From Ignavibacteriota bacterium (GTDB lineage Bacteria > Bacteroidota > Ignavibacteria > Kapaibacteriales > UBA2268): 64,000 bases of DNA. Position numbers and translations under genes: made by a program. Position 1 is the stretch's first letter, and the number at the start of each line of letters is the position of its first letter. The notes below the pieces were generated by a model. The model saw nothing but the letters and a program-made list of their open reading frames with translations, searched no databases and was not told the origin of the DNA. The DNA lies in contig JAHBUQ010000001.1 in assembly GCA_019637995.1 (NCBI GenBank), positions 1,103,589 through 1,167,588 of the forward strand, in the 5' to 3' direction. Shown here piece after piece: positions 54,796-64,000 of the stretch.

Positions 54796-55101
54796 ATGAA
54801 GTTATCAAAAGTTGCAACTGCAATCGGAATGAGCTCTATTATGATGTTTTCAGCGATGTCTTTTACAGGTTGTACACCTAAGATTACTGATGACCAGCTT
54901 GCTCGTTTGCAGGAACTACGTAAACAGGAACGCCAGATAAGTGCAGATATTTCCACCAGACAAAGCGAAATATCTAAAATTGAAGGCGAAATAAAGGCAC
55001 GCCAAGCAGAACTTAACGACTGCAGCAAAGATAAGGATTTTATCATCCAGAAATTAGCTCAGTGGCCTAATGTTTGGCCTGATTATACTCCATCTAAATA
55101 A
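54796..55101 (+). CDS. Small coiled-coil lipoprotein, 101 aa
   Basis: Lipobox FTGCTP. Heptad-rich LARLQELRKQERQISADISTRQSEISKIEGEIKARQAELNDC. Confidence 0.5.
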   Translation: MKLSKVATAIGMSSIMMFSAMSFTGCTPKITDDQLARLQELRKQERQISADISTRQSEISKIEGEIKARQAELNDCSKDKDFIIQKLAQWPNVWPDYTPSK

Positions 55102-55136
55102 CACTATGTGAAACAAATCAATTAAAATGAGGAATC

Positions 55137-55919
55137 ATGAAAAATCTATTTAATATCCTATTGTTATCGCTGTTAGTGCTTGGAGTTGCGTGTCAGCAAC
55201 CTGTATTGCCACCTGACAGTAAACCTGATACTGAACTTACTAAAGGTGAAGCTGATTTAAGAATTCAAAAATTCGAAGCAAGCGTTAAAGCTCTTCAAGC
55301 AAGACTTGATGAATTAAATAAAAAATCTGCAGATACAAAAAACAATCTTGATGATGTCAATAAACAACTTGTTGATTGTCAGGCTGAAATTTTAAGACTT
55401 ATTGGTGCCACTCAGGCTGATGTTGACGCTTACCGCCAAAGACTTGGTGTTCTTGAAGGTAAAGTACGTGCAATGCAGAAACTATCCGAAGCAGTTCTAT
55501 TAGAAAGACAAGCTGATGTAGTTGCACTTGAAAATGAATTAAATGAACTTCGTGCTAGTAAAATCTCTTTAATTCCGGAATTCTACAATAAAATTATTGC
55601 TCTTGCAAAAGATATTCGTGGTCTGTACAGAGAAAAGAAAATCACAACTTACACAGTTGGTACTTGGGCTGAAAACCGTGACTGTTTGTGGAATATTGCA
55701 GGTAAGATTGATATCTATTCAGATCCATTTATGTGGCCAAAGATTTGGCAGGGTAATACTGACCAGATTCGCAATCCTGACATAATTTTCCCTGGTCAGG
55801 TTCTTCAGATTCCTGCTAAAGGACCTAAATCCAGTGACGAGCTCAAAGCAGAACGTAAATACTGGAGAATGAAGAAAGAAGCACAAGCTGAAAACGCTCA
55901 AGCAGGCGGAGTTCAGTAA
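55137..55919 (+). CDS. Coiled-coil lipoprotein with a C-terminal LysM peptidoglycan-binding domain, 260 aa
   Basis: Lipobox LGVACQQ. Long coiled coil. LysM reads DCLWNIAGKIDIYSDPFMWPKIWQGNTDQIRNPDIIFPGQVLQIP. Confidence 0.65.
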   Translation: MKNLFNILLLSLLVLGVACQQPVLPPDSKPDTELTKGEADLRIQKFEASVKALQARLDELNKKSADTKNNLDDVNKQLVDCQAEILRLIGATQADVDAYRQRLGVLEGKVRAMQKLSEAVLLERQADVVALENELNELRASKISLIPEFYNKIIALAKDIRGLYREKKITTYTVGTWAENRDCLWNIAGKIDIYSDPFMWPKIWQGNTDQIRNPDIIFPGQVLQIPAKGPKSSDELKAERKYWRMKKEAQAENAQAGGVQ

Positions 55920-55946
55920 TCTTCCTGAACCTGAGATAGTATATTT

Positions 55947-55986
55947 GAAGCCCTGCTCCATATTTGGAAGTAGGGCTTTTTATTTA
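55947..55986 (+). terminator. Rho-independent terminator after the LysM lipoprotein gene: stem GAAGCCCT / AGGGCTT plus TTTTTATTT
   Basis: Inverted repeat with a T-tract, 28 nt after the stop. Confidence 0.5.
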
Positions 55987-56003
55987 TAAATATAAAATAA
56001 TCT

Positions 56004-57014
56004 ATGGAATTATTAGAAAAGAAAATTGCATTTGATAATGTGGAGCTGTTAACACTTTTCGGCTCTAATGACACACATCTGAATCTTATAGAAAATCGTT
56101 TCAAAGCTGGTATCATAGTCAGAGGTAATATCATAACACTCAAAGGACCTCAGGAAGATATCCTCAAAATTGAAAAAATTTTCGAGGAAATGCTTTATAT
56201 GATTAAACGCAATAAGAACATTTCTGAAGATGATGTTAAGACTGTAATAGAACTAATTGACGGTAATCATAGTAAATTAGATCCAAAGAAAGACAACAAA
56301 TCAATCAATCAAATCATTTTTCAGGGCGTCAAAGATTCAATAAGAATTCGCAATCCTAAACAGCTTGATTATTTAAATAAAGTTGAGGAGAATGACTTGG
56401 TATTTGCGATTGGTCCTGCCGGAACCGGTAAGACCTTTCTTGCAGTAGCAATGGCTTTGGCAGCCCTTAGAAATAACGAGGTCTCAAGGATTATTTTATC
56501 CAGACCGGCTGTAGAAGCCGGAGAATCTTTAGGTTTTTTGCCGGGAGATTTACAGGAAAAAATTGACCCTTATCTCCGCCCTCTTACAGATGCTATGCAC
56601 TATATGATTTCTCCTGAAAAAGTAAAGACTCTTATGGAGAGAAATATCATAGAAATCACTCCTCTTGCATATATGAGGGGAAGAACTCTCAGTAATTCAT
56701 TTATCATTTTGGACGAAGCACAAAATGCTACGACAATGCAGATGAAAATGTTTTTAACCAGATTGGGTGTTAACTCCAAAGCAATTATAACAGGAGATAT
56801 TACACAGATAGATTTACCTCTGAAAAAACTCTCCGGACTGATAGATGCAAACAGAATTCTTCAAAATATTAAAGGCATAGAATTTGTATATTTTGATAAC
56901 AAAGATGTTGTTCGTCATCGTTTGGTAGCAGATATTGTCAAAGCTTATGAGAAAGATGACTCAAGCACTAAAGAAGTTACAAAACAAAAAATAAAAGATA
57001 ATAATAAACAATAG
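56004..57014 (+). CDS. phoH: PhoH-like ATPase (PhoH/YbeZ family), 336 aa
   Basis: Walker A GPAGTGKTFLAVAMA and Walker B IILDEAQN. An N-terminal KH-like extension is present. Confidence 0.9.
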   Translation: MELLEKKIAFDNVELLTLFGSNDTHLNLIENRFKAGIIVRGNIITLKGPQEDILKIEKIFEEMLYMIKRNKNISEDDVKTVIELIDGNHSKLDPKKDNKSINQIIFQGVKDSIRIRNPKQLDYLNKVEENDLVFAIGPAGTGKTFLAVAMALAALRNNEVSRIILSRPAVEAGESLGFLPGDLQEKIDPYLRPLTDAMHYMISPEKVKTLMERNIIEITPLAYMRGRTLSNSFIILDEAQNATTMQMKMFLTRLGVNSKAIITGDITQIDLPLKKLSGLIDANRILQNIKGIEFVYFDNKDVVRHRLVADIVKAYEKDDSSTKEVTKQKIKDNNKQ

Positions 57015-57020
57015 TTACAT

Positions 57021-57785
57021 ATGGAACTGTTTAAGATAGGATTTCTAACCATAACGATGTTTGATTTGCTCGATATTTTTATCGTAGCAACTCTGTTTTA
57101 TTATCTTTACAGAGCATTAAAAAATACTGTTGCTGTTCAGATTTTATTTGGTATGGTCATAATTATCGCTTTACAGTTTATAACAGAGGCATCTAATTTT
57201 CGCTCATTAAATTGGATTTTGCGTACAATATCAGATGTTTGGCTTCTTGCATTTGTAATACTTTTTCAACCGGAATTACGAAAATTACTTCTTATAATTA
57301 CAAGAAGTCCAATTTTCAAATTATTCGTTAAACCAAAAATTTCTGAATCCTTAGATGAAATTGTAGATACAATCAAGGAACTGTCAGCTAAGCATATTGG
57401 TGCATTGTTAGTCTTTACACGCTCACAGAATGTACAGATGACAGTTGATACCGGAGTTCCTATGCAGGCTGCAATTTCAAAAGAATTACTAATGTCAATT
57501 TTTAATACAAAATCACCTCTTCATGACGGAGCTGTAATAATCAATAACGACATAATTCTTGCTGCTCGTTGTGTTTTGCCTTTGACCTCGGTCACAAAAT
57601 ACGGCTCAAAAAATTTAGGTACCAGACACAGAGCCGGACTAGGATTGTCAGAACAAGTTGATACTTTAGTAATTATTGTTTCTGAAGAAACAGGTGGTGT
57701 AACAGTGGCTGATGGCGGCGAACTTATAATCAATATCCCTGATGACCAACTTTTCAGTATAATTAGCTCCAGATTATATGACTAA
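57021..57785 (+). CDS. cdaA: Diadenylate cyclase (c-di-AMP synthase, CdaA-type), 254 aa
   Basis: Three N-terminal TM helices. DAC domain with HIGALLVF..., DGAVIINN and TRHRAGLGLSEQ motifs. Confidence 0.85.
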   Translation: MELFKIGFLTITMFDLLDIFIVATLFYYLYRALKNTVAVQILFGMVIIIALQFITEASNFRSLNWILRTISDVWLLAFVILFQPELRKLLLIITRSPIFKLFVKPKISESLDEIVDTIKELSAKHIGALLVFTRSQNVQMTVDTGVPMQAAISKELLMSIFNTKSPLHDGAVIINNDIILAARCVLPLTSVTKYGSKNLGTRHRAGLGLSEQVDTLVIIVSEETGGVTVADGGELIINIPDDQLFSIISSRLYD

Positions 57786-58443
57786 TGAAATTATAAATAA
57801 TTTTCTAAAACTAAATCCGCAGAAAAGAGAATTTTTGGTTAGCAGTTTGCGAAACAAAGGCATCTCAGAACTTACTTTATCTGCCCTAAATTCAATACCA
57901 AGAGAGTATTTCTTAAAAAAGTCTCTTTGGGATGAGGCTTATGATGACAAAGCTTTGCCAATTGATTTCAATCAAACAATATCTCAACCAGCAACTGTTG
58001 GTTTAATGACTGACTTGCTTGAAATTGAAGAAGGCTCCAAAGTTCTTGAAATTGGTACTGGAAGCTGCTATCAGGCGCTGATATTATCCTATTTAGGTGC
58101 AGAAGTATTTACTGTTGAAAGAATAGAAAATTTAAAAATCAATATTGAACAAACCTTTAAAGATTTTCCTTATAAATTCAACTATTTCTTTGGCGATGGA
58201 ACATCTGGACTTGTTGAATACGCTCCTTACGATAGAATAATTGTTACAGCCGGCTCGCCGGAAATACCGACAACATTACTTAATCAGCTTAAAATCGAAG
58301 GTATAATAGTGATTCCTGTCGGTGATAAAAATGGACAAACCATGAAAAAAGTCATCAAATTATCGAAAGATCAATATGATGTCAGCCAACATGGCGAATT
58401 TCGTTTTGTTCCTTTATTGGGATTGCATGGCTGGAGTTATTAA
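57778..58443 (+). CDS. pcm: Protein-L-isoaspartate O-methyltransferase
   Basis: ISQPATVGLM and the SAM-binding VLEIGTGSCYQALILSYLG; 221 aa. Overlaps cdaA by 8 nt. Confidence 0.9.
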   Translation: MTNEIINNFLKLNPQKREFLVSSLRNKGISELTLSALNSIPREYFLKKSLWDEAYDDKALPIDFNQTISQPATVGLMTDLLEIEEGSKVLEIGTGSCYQALILSYLGAEVFTVERIENLKINIEQTFKDFPYKFNYFFGDGTSGLVEYAPYDRIIVTAGSPEIPTTLLNQLKIEGIIVIPVGDKNGQTMKKVIKLSKDQYDVSQHGEFRFVPLLGLHGWSY

Positions 58444-58462
58444 TCACAAATTTGAACAGAAT

Positions 58463-59392
58463 ATGAAAAGACTTATAGATTCTCTTACAATGTCGGATAT
58501 TTACACTTTGTCAATGCTGCTTCTCTATACACTCTTGGCAGTTATCTTCTTCAACAATATAGGACATTCACTTTATCTTATTATTGGAAATATTGCTATT
58601 ATTTCATTTGTTGTTTATATTTCTTTAATCACAAAAAGATTCAGCAATAATGAGAAGTTTATGCTCTTCCGACGGGTATATATAGCACCGGTAGTTTTTG
58701 TAATTTATTCCCAGATTCATAATTACATACCGATTATCAATCCTGAATTGTACGATTTGACGTTGATTGAATGGGACAAGTTTTTATTCGGTGTTAATCC
58801 TACAGAATGGATATATGCAATTGCATATCCTCCACTTACTGAATATCTTCAATTCAGCTATATGCTTTATTTTGTTATGCCGATAGTTCATGGTGTCGAA
58901 CTTCACTTCAGGAAAGAAAATGCAAGTTTAGGAATTTTTGCTCGCAATATATTATTTGCTTTTTATCTTTCTTATTTGCTGTATTTCTTTATGCCTGCAA
59001 TAGGACCGAGATTTTTTATTCACGATTTTGCCACATTAAGCCTTGAGCTGCCCGGACTATTGCTTACTGAATTTTTCCGAAGCATAGTAAATAATGGTGG
59101 TGGAATTCCAATAGGTGCTGTTAATCCGGCTGATTTTGTAAATAGAGACTGCATGCCAAGTGGTCATACAATGATAACACTGGTAAACGTATATTTTGTT
59201 TTTAAGAATAAATCAAAATTTCGAATCCCAATATTCATTTTTTCAATGAGTTTGATTTTTGCAACAATCTATTTGAGATATCATTATGTTGTCGATATTA
59301 TAGCAGGAGTTATTTTTGCGTATATTTCAATTAAAATTGAGCCCATTATAAGAAAATTCGTTAAGGAAATACTTGGTTTTAAGAGCGCTTAA
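58463..59392 (+). CDS. PAP2-superfamily integral membrane protein (lipid phosphatase / phosphotransferase-like), about 309 aa
   Basis: Six or more TM helices. PAP2 motifs CMPSGHTM and LRYHYVVDIIAG. I use ATG 58463 (MKRLIDSLTM). The ORF track start at 58376 overlaps pcm. Confidence 0.6.
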   Translation: MKRLIDSLTMSDIYTLSMLLLYTLLAVIFFNNIGHSLYLIIGNIAIISFVVYISLITKRFSNNEKFMLFRRVYIAPVVFVIYSQIHNYIPIINPELYDLTLIEWDKFLFGVNPTEWIYAIAYPPLTEYLQFSYMLYFVMPIVHGVELHFRKENASLGIFARNILFAFYLSYLLYFFMPAIGPRFFIHDFATLSLELPGLLLTEFFRSIVNNGGGIPIGAVNPADFVNRDCMPSGHTMITLVNVYFVFKNKSKFRIPIFIFSMSLIFATIYLRYHYVVDIIAGVIFAYISIKIEPIIRKFVKEILGFKSA

Positions 59393-59400
59393 CCTTAATA

Positions 59401-59889
59401 TCACTCCATAAATAGAAACGGTTTCCATGATTCTTCAAGTTTACCTATGTGCTGTTTAAGAAAAACAATATGATTTGGCTTTCTTGGCTTTGATAATAAA
59501 GGCATCCCTGCTTCTTCAGGAGTTCGGTTGCCTTTTTTATTATTACAACGTACACAAGCAGTTATAAGATTTTCCCATGACTCAACACCACCTCTTGACC
59601 TTGGAATAATATGGTCAATAGTCATTTCGATACTATTCTTATTGCAATACTGGCAGCGATTACCATCACGTTTAATAACATTTTTACGGGACAGTTCCAC
59701 ATTTTTTAATGGAATTTTTACATAAGTCATTAGTTTAATGACACTTGGATATGGAAAATAATTATTGATTGTCCTGATAGTTCTGTTTTTTCTTTCTACA
59801 ACCATCTCCGCTTTGAAAAGAAGCAAAAGCACAATTGCTTTTCTGACCGAACAAAGACTTACAGGCTCATAACTTTGATTTAATACCAA
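59401..59889 (-). CDS. HNH endonuclease (McrA/COG1403-like stand-alone HNH), 162 aa
   Basis: HNH core CQYCNKNSIEMTIDHIIPRSRGGVESWENLITACVRCNNKKGN and the conserved N-terminal (K)VLVLNQSYEPVSL. The start is TTG. The frame stays open upstream to a TAA near 60030 without a canonical start. Confidence 0.85.
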   Translation of the reverse strand: MVLNQSYEPVSLCSVRKAIVLLLLFKAEMVVERKNRTIRTINNYFPYPSVIKLMTYVKIPLKNVELSRKNVIKRDGNRCQYCNKNSIEMTIDHIIPRSRGGVESWENLITACVRCNNKKGNRTPEEAGMPLLSKPRKPNHIVFLKQHIGKLEESWKPFLFME

Positions 59890-60133
59890 AACCTTACCAC
59901 CTAACCCCGTTGATTCTTTGATTAACGGTTCACTTCGAGGCTCTAAGTACTCATATTCACTTCTTAAAAAACTGAAAACTGGCTCCTTTATTTTAACTGT
60001 AATTAAGTCGTTACAAATGCTTAATTTATTTTATCTAAAATAATATTTAAATAAAAATTTTTGATGTATTATCAATTAATTTCAAGTTAAGCAATAATTA
60101 TTTATGAAGTTTTCATATATGATATGTTTTAAT

Positions 60134-60169
60134 CAGCTATCAACCTGATAGCTAATTATAGCTATCAGG
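60134..60169. repeat. Three 8-bp half-sites AGCTATCA / TGATAGCT / AGCTATCA (arranged forward, reverse, forward with spacers of 3 and 6), allowing two mutually exclusive hairpins. Candidate operator or RNA switch.
   Basis: CAGCTATCAACCTGATAGCTAATTATAGCTATCAGG, read directly. It lies about 245 nt upstream of the HNH start and about 115 nt downstream of the MNT stop. Confidence 0.4.
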
Positions 60170-60213
60170 TGGGTGAAATTATTATCAGGAGATTTGGAAG
60201 AATATAATATTTA

Positions 60214-60264
60214 TCCTACCTCACCACCACTACCTGCTCCCTAAGCAGTGTCCAGGGTGTTACC
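60214..60264 (-). repeat. Orphan copy (about 80% nucleotide identity) of the 3' coding end of the 60697 gene. On the minus strand it reads LNCGKVTPWTLLREQVVVVR*, compared with the in-gene GIYTIHLTAPWTLLREQVVVVR*.
   Basis: A direct repeat of about 50 bp flanks the MNT gene. This copy is preceded by an in-frame TAA, so it is non-coding or only a 23-aa remnant. Confidence 0.6.
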
Positions 60265-60283
60265 TTGCCGCAATTAAGACACA

Positions 60284-60643
60284 CTAATTATTTTTTATTG
60301 AGATTTCAATGCCATTTTGTTTTACATTTTGAATAACAGGCGATATTTTATCATTAATAAATCTTTTTAATCCTACGGGATATGGTTCGATTTTATAATT
60401 TGATTTTGCTGTTAATTTCCAAATTATACCAAGATATTTATCTCTATCCTCATCAAATTCCGGAGCTACAAGCATTAAATCTATGTCACTATCTGCATTT
60501 TCAGTTCCATTTGCATAACTTCCATAAAGTAATACTTTAGAAAGATTTATACTATTGTTATTCAAATCAGATATATACTCTTGAATCATTTTTATAATAG
60601 ACTCTTTAACCATTGTAGTAATTCCTCTGTTTCTTATTAGCAA
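60284..60643 (-). CDS. Minimal nucleotidyltransferase (MNT, Pol-beta superfamily), 119 aa; antitoxin-like of HEPN/MNT pairs, with no HEPN partner found
   Basis: GS motif LLYGSYANGTENADSDIDLMLV (hG[GS] ... DhDhhh). Small size. Confidence 0.75.
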   Translation of the reverse strand: MLIRNRGITTMVKESIIKMIQEYISDLNNNSINLSKVLLYGSYANGTENADSDIDLMLVAPEFDEDRDKYLGIIWKLTAKSNYKIEPYPVGLKRFINDKISPVIQNVKQNGIEISIKNN

Positions 60644-60694
60644 TCAGTTACTCATATTTTTAAACGAATAAGTTCCATATTATTATACAACATC

Positions 60695-60745
60695 TCCTAC
60701 CTCACCACAACCACCTGCTCTCTAAGCAACGTCCAGGGGGCTGTT
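60695..60745 (-). repeat. In-gene copy of the tail-coding repeat, the true 3' end of the 60697 gene. Partner of 60214-60264.
   Basis: Same basis as 60214-60264. Confidence 0.6.
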
Positions 60746-63700
60746 AAGTGGATTGTATAAATGCCATTGCCCAGATTTTGTGTGTTAATGTTGTAGTCTT
60801 TTTGCTCGAATGTTTTGTCGGATTTTGTAAATTCTGTGCGATACACTTCACGACCCTGAACATCAAATATTACAAGGCGGAAGCTGCCATCCTCCTGCGT
60901 ACCGATGTTGACTTTCAACTCTCCGCCAGAAGGATTAGGTGAAACAGACATGCGTGTTGGGGCGAACTGCTGTATCCCACGAATTGGCACCTGACATAAG
61001 GAATCCAGTGTCAGTGAGCCGTCGCGGGTAGTAATAGAAAGCGATGCTTCACTTTCGATAAATTCAATATGAATTGGGGTGGTCATTCTTGGTGAAAATA
61101 ATACATCACCTTTCAGATGGAAAAGTACAGTTTCTGTGCTTGTAATTTCTGGGAAAGTATTCTCAATGACCATACTTTCATAATTACCATCAGGGGTTTT
61201 ACTTAGAATTTGAGCGTCAGGACTTGATACGTTGTAGTATAATTCAGGTAAATATCGTAAATTGAGTTTATATTTCTTGCCACTTATTTGTGCTCCAATA
61301 TCTGTATCTGCAAATATTGGAATTTCATAACCTTTTATTCCAACTTCAGAAGTGTGATGATTTGCCCAAATTGTCATTAATCGGCTGACATCTGCTTTAA
61401 GCGCAATTTTGATTGAATCTTCACAATCACCAAGTCTAAAATATACAGTCATTTCATCGGCATATTCGCCTATTATTTCAGATGAAAATGATATATTAAT
61501 CAATCCTTTTTCATTTTTGGAGATTGCTTTAGTAAATGATAAAATGCTGAAATTTGATGTAAGAGTTTTTACTTCTGAAATTTCAATTTCTTCACTTCTA
61601 TTCAAAATTTCAAAATTAATATTCTTGATTTCCCCCGGTTTTAATTTGCCAAAATCTATTACCGTTAAGTATTCAAGTTCGGGGATTACCCTTTCACCTA
61701 TTATTTCGACATCAAAATTTCTTTCAGAGCCATCAATCATCAGTTTAGCCCGGACTTTTGCGAAATTCTGAGATTTCACTTTGTCTTGTGGTAAATACCG
61801 CACTGCAACAGCTATATATTTCCCTGACACCAATTCAATAGGTAATGTTAAAACATCCACGAATTCAAAACTACCATCATTTTCTATAAACGAAAAACCA
61901 GTTACCTGAACAGGCGAATTTCCTGTATTATAGATGCGGAGACTATCAATAAGTTCTTCGCACCAAGGCACTTTTCCAAAGTCTATTCCGGTTATTTCAG
62001 CTTTTGAGGAATCAAACTTGCAAACCAAATTACTTGTTAAATCCGGTGAACATCTGCCACTGAAAATAAACTCTATATCAGTATTGATTTCACCTGTTAT
62101 TGATGATGATAACTCTAATTCAATTTCTATTTCCTGCATTGAGGGAATTTCAATCGGAAGTGCTGTTGCTAATGTTACTCTGTTATCACCAATTATAATA
62201 TTATTTAGTGTGAAATTATCTCTTGTATTATTTCTGATTGTAAGCACAGTATCGTATAATACGTTCAGATTTCTGATACCCATAACAATATCATTTACTG
62301 AAATATCAATCTCTGCATATTCGCCTTTGAGAGGACAGTTTAGTGTCTTTTCAGATGTAATAATTTCTAATATTGCAGATTTATTACCATAAGGAGCAAG
62401 CGGTTTGTACTCTATAACAAATTTTGCGGGGTTACCTCTGATAAGAATTTCACCATCATTTGGCTTTTCAAGAATAGTGAAGTTATCTGCATTTAAACCG
62501 ATTATTTGAGATGAATTATATGTCAAAGGCAAGTTGGTTACATTTTCAATCGTTATAGTATCTGTTTTATTCTCACAAAAATACAAATAGCCGTAGTCAA
62601 GTGAATCTGCATTAATTACTATACTTTCTGTTACACCCTTACCTTTGATGATTACCTCAAGTGTGTCAGGACAGCCCGTTCCGGCATAAATTTTATATTT
62701 GTACTCAAATGTTCCGGCAACTGTTGGAGTAAACTCTATCGTATAATCAAGGTATTCACCGCCTTTTATGAAATTGCTCGTTTGTTCAGGTGAAATCTGT
62801 TTGAATGGTGCTGGTAAATCTTTTATTGCTTGTATCCATGAAGCAACATCACCGTTATTGTAAATTCTGAATATACCGGATGCTGTATTATTAATCAGTA
62901 TTGTTCCCAAATCCCAGACCAAATCTGTTTCAATTATCACGGCTTTGGTTACTCCGCTAAACTCTACAGTATGGCTGAAATCTGAAATACTATTCTGCTT
63001 AAATACTACACTACCTGTATGAGTTTTATGCTGCTTGGGTGCGAAGATAATAGTAAATTCCTTCTTTTCACCCGCCTGAAGTGTGAATGCTTCATTTGGT
63101 ACTATTCTGTATCCTTCTCCTGTCAAGTGCGGTGGCTCAAATTCCATTTGTGAGTGCCATTCGTTGCTAACTTCTACCTTGAACAATGTCTCGTGGTTTA
63201 CGCATATTGTATCACTGATTTGTATTTTGGTTGGTGTTACACTCACAAGTTTGCTGTCGTCAAGCTTAAAACGGAACGTAATCAGGTCATAAAGTGCATT
63301 TGTACTCAATTTCGGATCTATGGTATTCCAATCAGGAAGAATATGTGTATATGATTCTATTGGATAAAAATCATCAAGAGCATATTTACTGCTGTCCTGC
63401 ATATAGGTCATTTCATCCACATTTGAAACAAAGTAGTCTAAGTAAAGTTCATGATTGAATATGCGAGAACTCTTAATTTCAAATAGTTGAAATTTTCTTG
63501 TTTTTTCATGGAGATTATCATATTTTATATAAAGAGCCGCTGTATCCTGCCAGATGACATCACCATCCGGTGACATTTTTGTTACCACAAGCCGCCTGGA
63601 TGTGGGGTGTGAGCGGTACTCCATTGAATCTATAAATCTCTGTATAAATATATTACCTATGCTGTCTAAACTCATTATCAGCTCCGTACCGGTATTCATT

Positions 63701-64000
63701 GTTGTATTAAAGTGAACTGTTGTGTTATGATGTATATTATCATTCATTTCTAAATAAGGATATTGAATCTGCTCCCTTAGGAATAAGTCAAAATAAGATT
63801 CCAATTCACCGTTTTCATTAAAACGTGTATAACTACTACCAGAGGTTGCCCTCAAATTACTAATTGTATAATTATCAGGAAATTTAAGGAACTGACTTAG
63901 CCATAAAAGTTTTCCTGTGCTATCGAATTTCATAAGACAGGGTTGCCCCTTATCAGGATTCGGATTATATGGATTAACCTTAATTCTGTCTTTGTACTTT
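60697..64000 (-). CDS. Very large secreted protein with many Ig-like (DUF1573/ASPM-type) repeats and a T9SS C-terminal sorting domain. Partial: the N-terminus lies beyond the window end.
   Basis: The frame is open past position 64000, reading ...KYKDRIKVNPYNPNPDKGQPCLMKFDS.... Repeated xIDFGxV...N.GN..L.I units. The tail is MSVSPNPSGGELKVNIG...GIYTIHLTAPWTLLREQVVVVR. Confidence 0.7.
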   Translation of the reverse strand, partial: KYKDRIKVNPYNPNPDKGQPCLMKFDSTGKLLWLSQFLKFPDNYTISNLRATSGSSYTRFNENGELESYFDLFLREQIQYPYLEMNDNIHHNTTVHFNTTMNTGTELIMSLDSIGNIFIQRFIDSMEYRSHPTSRRLVVTKMSPDGDVIWQDTAALYIKYDNLHEKTRKFQLFEIKSSRIFNHELYLDYFVSNVDEMTYMQDSSKYALDDFYPIESYTHILPDWNTIDPKLSTNALYDLITFRFKLDDSKLVSVTPTKIQISDTICVNHETLFKVEVSNEWHSQMEFEPPHLTGEGYRIVPNEAFTLQAGEKKEFTIIFAPKQHKTHTGSVVFKQNSISDFSHTVEFSGVTKAVIIETDLVWDLGTILINNTASGIFRIYNNGDVASWIQAIKDLPAPFKQISPEQTSNFIKGGEYLDYTIEFTPTVAGTFEYKYKIYAGTGCPDTLEVIIKGKGVTESIVINADSLDYGYLYFCENKTDTITIENVTNLPLTYNSSQIIGLNADNFTILEKPNDGEILIRGNPAKFVIEYKPLAPYGNKSAILEIITSEKTLNCPLKGEYAEIDISVNDIVMGIRNLNVLYDTVLTIRNNTRDNFTLNNIIIGDNRVTLATALPIEIPSMQEIEIELELSSSITGEINTDIEFIFSGRCSPDLTSNLVCKFDSSKAEITGIDFGKVPWCEELIDSLRIYNTGNSPVQVTGFSFIENDGSFEFVDVLTLPIELVSGKYIAVAVRYLPQDKVKSQNFAKVRAKLMIDGSERNFDVEIIGERVIPELEYLTVIDFGKLKPGEIKNINFEILNRSEEIEISEVKTLTSNFSILSFTKAISKNEKGLINISFSSEIIGEYADEMTVYFRLGDCEDSIKIALKADVSRLMTIWANHHTSEVGIKGYEIPIFADTDIGAQISGKKYKLNLRYLPELYYNVSSPDAQILSKTPDGNYESMVIENTFPEITSTETVLFHLKGDVLFSPRMTTPIHIEFIESEASLSITTRDGSLTLDSLCQVPIRGIQQFAPTRMSVSPNPSGGELKVNIGTQEDGSFRLVIFDVQGREVYRTEFTKSDKTFEQKDYNINTQNLGNGIYTIHLTAPWTLLREQVVVVR

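Follow-up and report, generated by a model that had tools for sequence, protein, structure and literature searches.

The movement of chromosomal toxin–antitoxin pairs without transposases or integrases is, to our knowledge, poorly understood. The elements e14 and phage 21 at icd integrate into the 3' end of the gene and carry a replacement for that end. Jackson et al. (2009) reportedly dealt with the displacement of C termini at effector–immunity loci of the Rhs, CDI, and T6SS types. For Rhs and T6SS loci, such displacement has been attributed to homology-facilitated illegitimate recombination (PMC5361080, Kirchberger et al. 2017). [quoted passage not shown] The criteria for long target duplications used below are those of Furuta, Abe and Kobayashi 2010 (PMC2853133), reviewed in PMC3874152. 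HepT/MntA (HEPN–MNT) pairs are type VII toxin–antitoxin systems (PMC7641770, PMC4621449, PMC11586414).

Here we analyzed a 64-kb stretch of DNA, referred to as the window, in which a minimal nucleotidyltransferase (MNT) gene is bracketed by two direct repeats, one of which is the 3' end of a giant gene for a T9SS-secreted protein (gene B). With a probability of roughly two in three, we consider this locus to be the scar of an integrase-less HEPN–MNT cassette that inserted at the 3' end of gene B by recombination anchored in tail-coding DNA. The locus resembles restriction–modification insertions in that host sequence, tens to hundreds of base pairs in length, is directly repeated on both sides of a small, addiction-type cassette that has no mobility gene, but it differs in its cargo, a HEPN–MNT pair. 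As in the Rhs, CDI, and T6SS loci, a conserved coding stretch would anchor the incoming DNA, the 3' end would be taken over, and the old end would be orphaned downstream. Different from those loci, what is displaced is a 14-codon secretion tail and not a variable toxin domain accompanied by an immunity gene, and the cargo is a separate two-gene cassette that leaves the host protein unchanged. Like e14 and phage 21 at icd, the locus has a synonymous replacement 3' end that keeps the host gene intact, with the old end at the other junction; those elements have an integrase and a defined core, whereas the element described here has no integrase, is smaller than 1 kb, and has variable junctions.

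The 3' part of gene B occupies 60697..64000 on the minus strand. The gene extends past the end of the window and encodes 1710 aa in full according to the gene call on L001. Its sorting domain, encoded by approximately 60697–60966, matches PF18962 (Por_Secre_tail) with 39 bits at a cutoff of 27, and the protein contains Ig-like/ASH domains in addition. Another T9SS gene of 1159 aa, gene A, is located immediately upstream of gene B, just outside the window, and matches PF18962 with 36.4 bits (cutoff 27); the proteins encoded by genes A and B both have a type A T9SS sorting domain at the C terminus. Over their last 271 nt, the two genes are 97.4% identical. In the tandem of A and B (L001, 1218–4697 and 4785–9917), the bodies of the genes are unrelated, and the shared 271-nt block begins sharply at the domain boundary (FAPTRMS...). 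At the level of sequence comparison, this block suggests that the paralogues recently underwent gene conversion or exchanged the secretion tail as a module. Mismatches between A and B are concentrated at the 3' edge of the block, with 5 in the last 42 nt versus 2 in 229 nt (Fisher p = 0.0012). This clustering could result from gene conversion that seldom reaches the edge of a homology block, which counts against our main reading.

An initial annotation of this DNA had described direct repeats of about 50 bp and about 80% identity around the MNT gene. We observed an ungapped repeat core of 44 nt on the minus strand, 60214–60257 versus 60695–60738, with identity at 39 of 44 positions (88.6%), and an extended repeat of 55 nt at 82% identity (60203–60257 and 60684–60738, also on the minus strand). 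Both lengths exceed the 30 bp required by Furuta et al. for direct repeats. Copy 1 (60695..60738, minus strand) consists of the last 13 codons and the stop codon of gene B (PWTLLREQVVVVR followed by the stop) plus 2 nt. It is the true 3' end of gene B, as had been proposed (the protein ending in TIHLTAPWTLLREQVVVVR, also given as GIYTIHLTAPWTLLREQVVVVR), and this is borne out by the match of the encoded domain to PF18962 well above the cutoff. Copy 2 (60214..60257, minus strand) is an orphan tail fragment that again encodes PWTLLREQVVVVR and a stop, plus 2 nt. Its translation reads LVCLNCGKVTPWTLLREQVVVVR between two stop codons, in agreement with the earlier description of an orphan behind an in-frame stop. 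The orphan codes for 13–16 residues and is not a sorting domain. All five differences between the two copies are synonymous in the frame of PWTLLREQVVVVR. A fusion of MNT to the tail by frameshift was considered and rejected: there is a stop codon immediately upstream in the tail frame, and 13–20 residues do not amount to a sorting domain.

The core pattern CCCTGGAC..TGCTTAG.GAGCAGGT.GT.GTGGTGAGGTAGGA occurs twice in the 64-kb window, at the two positions given above, with an expectation by chance of 0.00 in 100 shuffles. The possibility of a common intergenic repeat, which had been named as a point to check, was rejected, given that a degenerate form of the tail pattern was present in 1 species genome of approximately 185,000; a looser pattern matched four metagenome contigs, one of them by chance.

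Past the orphan on the minus strand follow GATAAATATT, a hairpin, and then a gene for an HNH endonuclease. The hairpin, CCTGATAGCT-ATAATT-AGCTATCAGG (60144..60169, minus strand), was read from the sequence approximately 45 nt past the orphan stop and has a perfect 10-bp stem and a 6-nt loop. After it, there is a partial third copy of GATAGCT and no T-run. It may be the original gene-end hairpin. Terminator prediction called no intrinsic terminator, and the hairpin did not qualify as one because it lacks a T-run. The HNH gene (59401–59922), which had been noted as lying just beyond the MNT gene, is indeed present, but it is a widely conserved core gene and stands outside the event. In agreement with the earlier statement that no integrase is present, neither an integrase nor a transposase is annotated within approximately 10 kb according to Pfam gene calls, and there is accordingly no mobility gene in or next to the insert over this distance, as in the insertions described by Furuta et al. 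A weak IstB match within approximately 10 kb falls under a PhoH ATPase.

Direct repeats around a small cassette look like attL and attR, and the tail could thus be an attachment site used by a recombinase acting in trans, be it integron-like, Xer-like, or integrase-mediated. Folding of the two repeat copies gave no structure beyond that of shuffled sequences (z = 0.09 for the orphan and –0.74 for the other copy), and a search of 59800–61000 against Rfam gave no match at E ≤ 1, so that a structured RNA was rejected. Neither a conserved core or attC-like structure nor a nearby recombinase was observed, and a tRNA search of 55000–64000 found none. Because an integrase, a transposase, and a tRNA are all missing nearby and the repeats have no significant fold and no core in common with other loci (see below), we regard site-specific recombination as very improbable.

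The MNT gene is real, but its start probably differs from that given in the initial annotation, which had proposed 119 aa at 60284–60643. The ATG at 60613 (109 aa) is more likely the start than the TTG at 60643 (119 aa), because the database form has 109 aa and homologues start with MVKESII. The gene would then occupy 60284..60613 on the minus strand. It is intact and matches PF01909 (37.4 bits, E = 3e-9, cutoff 21) and PF18765 (35.5 bits, E = 1e-8, cutoff 26.9). The GS...DxD motif (G31 S32 ... D43 I44 D45) is complete and invariant across an alignment of 14 sequences. Judged by comparison with its homologue on the metagenomic contig L007, the solitary gene shows purifying selection (dN/dS = 0.14). 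An identical MNT protein is annotated in a Candidatus Kapabacteria metagenome-assembled genome (GCA_026129425.1, contig JAHCIB010000002.1; the window is 100% identical). The family to which this MNT belongs has more than 5,000 members. Searches of plasmid and phage collections gave no MNT match, and a scan of viral contigs returned distant MNT families only, none of them with flanking repeats. Distant MNT homologues of 31–33% identity (L012/L013, 4001–4315, and L041–L050) are also without a HEPN gene and without flanking repeats. In L012, the MNT gene adjoins convergent genes with T9SS tails, and in L041 it is preceded by a 34-aa open reading frame that is a candidate HEPN remnant.

An assembly artefact is barely credible as the origin of this arrangement. 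The window comes from a metagenome-assembled genome, and an assembler might in principle be confused by the near-identical 271-nt sorting-domain blocks that A and B have in common, but a second contig of 1.5 Mb has the same MNT gene with the same neighbours, and the same architecture is present on independent contigs from other samples. In addition, the two repeat copies are not collapsed k-mers because they differ at 5 of 44 positions.

In the seven homologous cassette loci that were fetched, with 36–89% identity of their MNT to that of the window, an intact PF05168 HEPN gene is positioned directly upstream of MNT and overlaps it by 22–28 nt. No such adjacent partner is present in the window, where global alignment and tblastn against L007 identified a HEPN remnant at 60595..60660 (minus strand). 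A filler of approximately 28 nt (60633–60660) takes the place of approximately 359 nt of L007. With the L007 HEPN protein as a tblastn query, residues 113–125 alone matched, at 60633–60595, and there was no HEPN gene elsewhere in the 64-kb window. The last 13 HEPN codons (TEELLQWLKSLL followed by the stop) remain and end at the same stop codon overlapping the MNT start. Because about 28 nt stand in place of about 359 nt and only the 13 terminal codons are left, the toxin-like HEPN gene was deleted in place, and the MNT gene is the rest of a two-gene HEPN–MNT cassette. The earlier claim that a HEPN partner is missing thus holds for the window, with the refinement that its absence is secondary: there is no toxin–antitoxin pair because HEPN was deleted in situ.

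With its GS...DxD motif and, in relatives, its pairing and translational overlap with a HEPN-domain gene, the MNT gene resembles the HepT/MntA systems. However, in these relatives HEPN comes first in the gene order, and the partner belongs to PF05168 rather than to DUF86/HepT. PF05168 is the sole Pfam match of the L007 partner (60.8 bits), and precomputed Pfam matches of the partners in the other loci are also to PF05168. The locus is therefore not a member of the HepT/MntA systems, because the partner is PF05168 instead of DUF86 and is absent from the window. From the composition of the cassette, MNT is presumed to be the antitoxin half of the HEPN–MNT pair. Toxin–antitoxin systems usually decay by loss of the toxin first, while the antitoxin stays. 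By analogy, the solitary MNT may be an orphan antitoxin, and the locus would be an example of toxin-first decay with the antitoxin kept.

The relative most informative for the junctions is L007, a metagenomic contig of 5.6 kb with other flanking genes unlike those of the window. Its order is a 245-aa gene (the protein ending in TIHLTAPWTLLREQVVVVK), HEPN, MNT, a stretch of 45 nt, and the tail end once more, as a perfect copy of 26 nt. The MNT genes of L007 and the window are identical at 89% of amino acids and 91.6% of nucleotides. Window positions 60851–60661 align with 1177–1367 of L007 at 80.6% identity, continuously across the stop codon. This homology reaches from 155 nt inside the sorting domain, past the stop, to approximately 34–36 nt into the cassette, and it resumes at the end of HEPN and in MNT until 60299, inside the last MNT codons. 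Thus, the left junction is common to both loci and includes a non-coding cassette end of approximately 34 nt after the stop codon (60661..60694, minus strand). From the MNT stop to the orphan repeat there is a spacer of 26 nt (60258..60283, minus strand), which is non-homologous to the spacer of L007. The initial annotation had likened the locus to an insertion or a recombination by way of homology between tail-coding sequences and had considered that the DNA arrived together with MNT from another tail-bearing gene. The layout of L007, where the same MNT is located behind a tail-bearing gene and is followed by a second tail copy, supports both proposals, as does the continuation of the homology past the stop codon.

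The 245-aa gene of L007 (594–1331) has no Pfam match and resembles a T9SS sorting domain over its last ~52 residues only. Because the match is limited to these residues, it may be a chimera that was made when a cassette with an attached partial tail landed. Window and L007 may go back to one ancestral event and would then be non-independent; the spacers between MNT and orphan, as well as the orphan lengths, differ between the two, which argues against one shared event. On L003, a metagenomic relative of L007, there is an orphan fragment of 104 nt from the same T9SS tail without a cassette (1433–1650). In front of this fragment stand the first 18 codons of the 245-aa gene, together with 37 nt from the end of an endonuclease III gene, in scrambled order relative to L007.

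Comparison of the tail copies indicates which end belonged to the resident gene. The orphan is of the resident type: it is identical to the tail of paralogue A at 42 of 42 positions and differs from cassette-free orthologues of gene B (L002, L005, and L006) at 1–3 of 42 (39–41 identical). The present tail of gene B differs from every other copy at 4 or more of 42 positions and is the outlier of the eight copies compared. The GTG GTT codons of this tail are also found in L002, which has no cassette, so that the "imported" signature is not exclusive to cassette carriers. L002 is 91% identical to gene B over 3.4 kb, and L005 and L006 are 84–86% identical. In all three, homology ends exactly at the stop codon, past which there is a convergent gene or an IS3-like transposase unrelated to the window. 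In L005 and L006, the transposase open reading frame (MSKSTEKYSREYKDRAVKLMLDKG...), its identity judged from sequence, lies approximately 190 nt past the stop of the gene B orthologue. L002, L005/L006, and the window thus have three different downstream contexts, each from the stop codon on.

A clean empty site was not obtained from L002, L005, and L006, though each of them holds a single tail copy, because synteny downstream of gene B is broken in all relatives retrieved. Orthologues of the HNH gene did not provide one either: in the nearest relative, the genes upstream of HNH are unrelated. In L051, L052, and L054, the slot upstream of HNH is occupied by a different pair of small genes, among them a member of the TumE family (PF20126; for example, L051 5863–6548), and on the sister contig L053 it is filled by other small genes. 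Small cassettes may land repeatedly in this position upstream of HNH.

Homology between the window and L007 extends past the stop codon, homology to the cassette-free orthologues extends to the stop codon only, and the orphan equals the tail of A. On these grounds, it is most likely that the present tail of gene B arrived with the cassette and that the orphan is the displaced resident end. The alternative is an insertion in situ with a long target duplication, in which the last 44–55 nt of gene B were copied on the spot and diverged later. Insertions of this class are described for restriction–modification addiction modules (PMC2853133, PMC3874152), and a simple duplication would fit loci in which the repeat copies are near-identical, as in L007 (26/26) and L008 (83/84). 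In the window, however, the orphan has no changes relative to paralogue A, whereas the functional copy has five, all of them synonymous. Neutral decay of an orphan should result mostly in non-synonymous changes, indels, or loss of the stop codon, but the orphans of the window, L021, and L031 all retain both frame and stop. Moreover, the tail of gene B and 36 nt past its stop are inherited together with the cassette, which is also the case in L007. For the window, L021, and L031 at least, a pattern of synonymous or conservative changes therefore speaks against an on-the-spot duplication with subsequent neutral decay. As an explanation of the window, we consider in situ duplication unlikely; it may have been the founding event in some lineage, with homologous recombination spreading the cassette later.

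We infer the direction of the event, that is, which copy was imported and which was resident, and the route of recombination as follows. A cassette would have come in on the same piece of DNA as the 3' end of a homologous gene with a T9SS tail, and recombination anchored in tail-coding DNA would have joined gene B to the incoming tail. The incoming tail is a synonymous variant, and the protein encoded by gene B would therefore have remained unchanged. The last 14 resident codons and the sequence downstream of them would have been pushed to the far side of the cassette, to persist there as an untranslated orphan. A later deletion of HEPN in place would have left the solitary, intact MNT gene. 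Three routes are conceivable. A homologous crossover at one end could have been combined with an illegitimate join at the other, or a circularized fragment could have been integrated by a single crossover. Alternatively, an orphan copy already present could have served as the right-hand homology arm in an ordinary double crossover.

For all independent loci fetched (n = 8), the 400 nt to the left of the cassette were compared with the 400 nt to its right. Direct repeats flank the cassette in seven of the eight loci, six of seven when the window is left aside, with scores of 38–109 bits and lengths of 19–139 nt. Random intervals never reached 38 bits in 1284 controls, 700 in the window and 584 in the other loci (maximum 32), and five distant MNT loci had no flanking repeat. 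The repeat in the window (44 nt, 88.6%, 48 bits) is the 3' end of a T9SS gene, and that in L007 (26 nt, 100%, 52 bits) is a T9SS-type tail. In L008–L010 it is a piece of a methyltransferase gene (84 nt, 98–100%, 109 bits), in L021 the last 44 codons of a porin-like gene (139 nt, 85%, 109 bits), and in L031 the 3' end and terminator of a NuoN-like gene (61 nt at 90%, or ~130 nt at 76% with gaps; 74 bits). In 2 of the 7 repeat-flanked loci, the repeats are local repetitive elements and not gene ends: a palindromic intergenic element in L011 (~100 nt, 77–100%, 42 bits) and a local repetitive element in L017 (19–24 nt, 92–100%, 38 bits). L027 has no flanking repeat (20 bits). The repeat is a gene 3' end in four loci, with the orphan keeping frame and stop. 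Between the repeat copies of L021, there are 12 synonymous versus 4 non-synonymous differences; under a rough expectation of 56% non-synonymous changes, the synonymous excess has a binomial p of ~0.016 in the window and ~0.012 in L021. Repeat copies that are 77–100% identical and differ in a synonymous or conservative pattern point to one copy having come from another genome, unlike the duplication in restriction–modification insertions.

This recurrence bears on two of the alternatives. The orphan could be all that is left of a third T9SS paralogue in the tandem after deletion of its body, with MNT merely sitting in the gap; a tandem of A and B with near-identical sorting domains already exists, and L003 has its tail fragment without an adjoining cassette. 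We consider this quite improbable, given that the bracket recurs beside porin-like, NuoN-like, and methyltransferase genes, for which the loci fetched show no tandem of paralogues, that the exact tail–cassette–tail layout is found again in L007, and that random intervals never have such repeats. Site-specific recombination would seem compatible with L009 and L010, two independent assemblies that each gave a 1226-nt contig of a homologous HEPN–MNT cassette whose ends overlap, by 55 nt and 30 nt, respectively, which is a circular signature. Such circular contigs are, however, the expected assembler output if a repeat exceeds the k-mer length, and they are also compatible with an excised circle. 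Furthermore, the repeats are unrelated between loci except for the T9SS tail in the window and L007, vary in length, and revealed neither a shared core nor a junction motif. The window, L007, and L008 have a GGTGGTG-type run where their repeats end, which was dismissed as chance because it is absent from the other loci.

The repeats suggest that the landing pads are conserved coding ends, such as secretion tails, C termini of outer-membrane proteins, and gene ends with terminators. A broader proposal, which we put forward only tentatively and with some doubt, is that the HEPN(PF05168)–MNT clade consists of integrase-less mobile cassettes that carry a piece captured from the host gene next to them, in most cases the 3' end with the terminator. 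In a more radical and purely speculative version, the proteins of the cassette might themselves promote the insertion event.

In conclusion, we describe a probable insertion scar that can be read at single-nucleotide resolution: a synonymous replacement forms the gene end on one side of the cassette, and the original end lies displaced on the opposite side. Annotators should regard short orphan 3' ends beside small cassettes as informative scars and not as noise. The recurrence of the repeat bracket extends the mode of mobility known from restriction–modification systems to a toxin–antitoxin-type family. If the broader proposal is true, the two bracketing copies would be built-in homology arms with which host recombination pastes the cassette behind an orthologous or paralogous gene without damage to it. 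Displaced gene ends would then be a fossil record of insertions in related genomes, and shared tails such as the T9SS sorting domain would provide many landing sites per genome.
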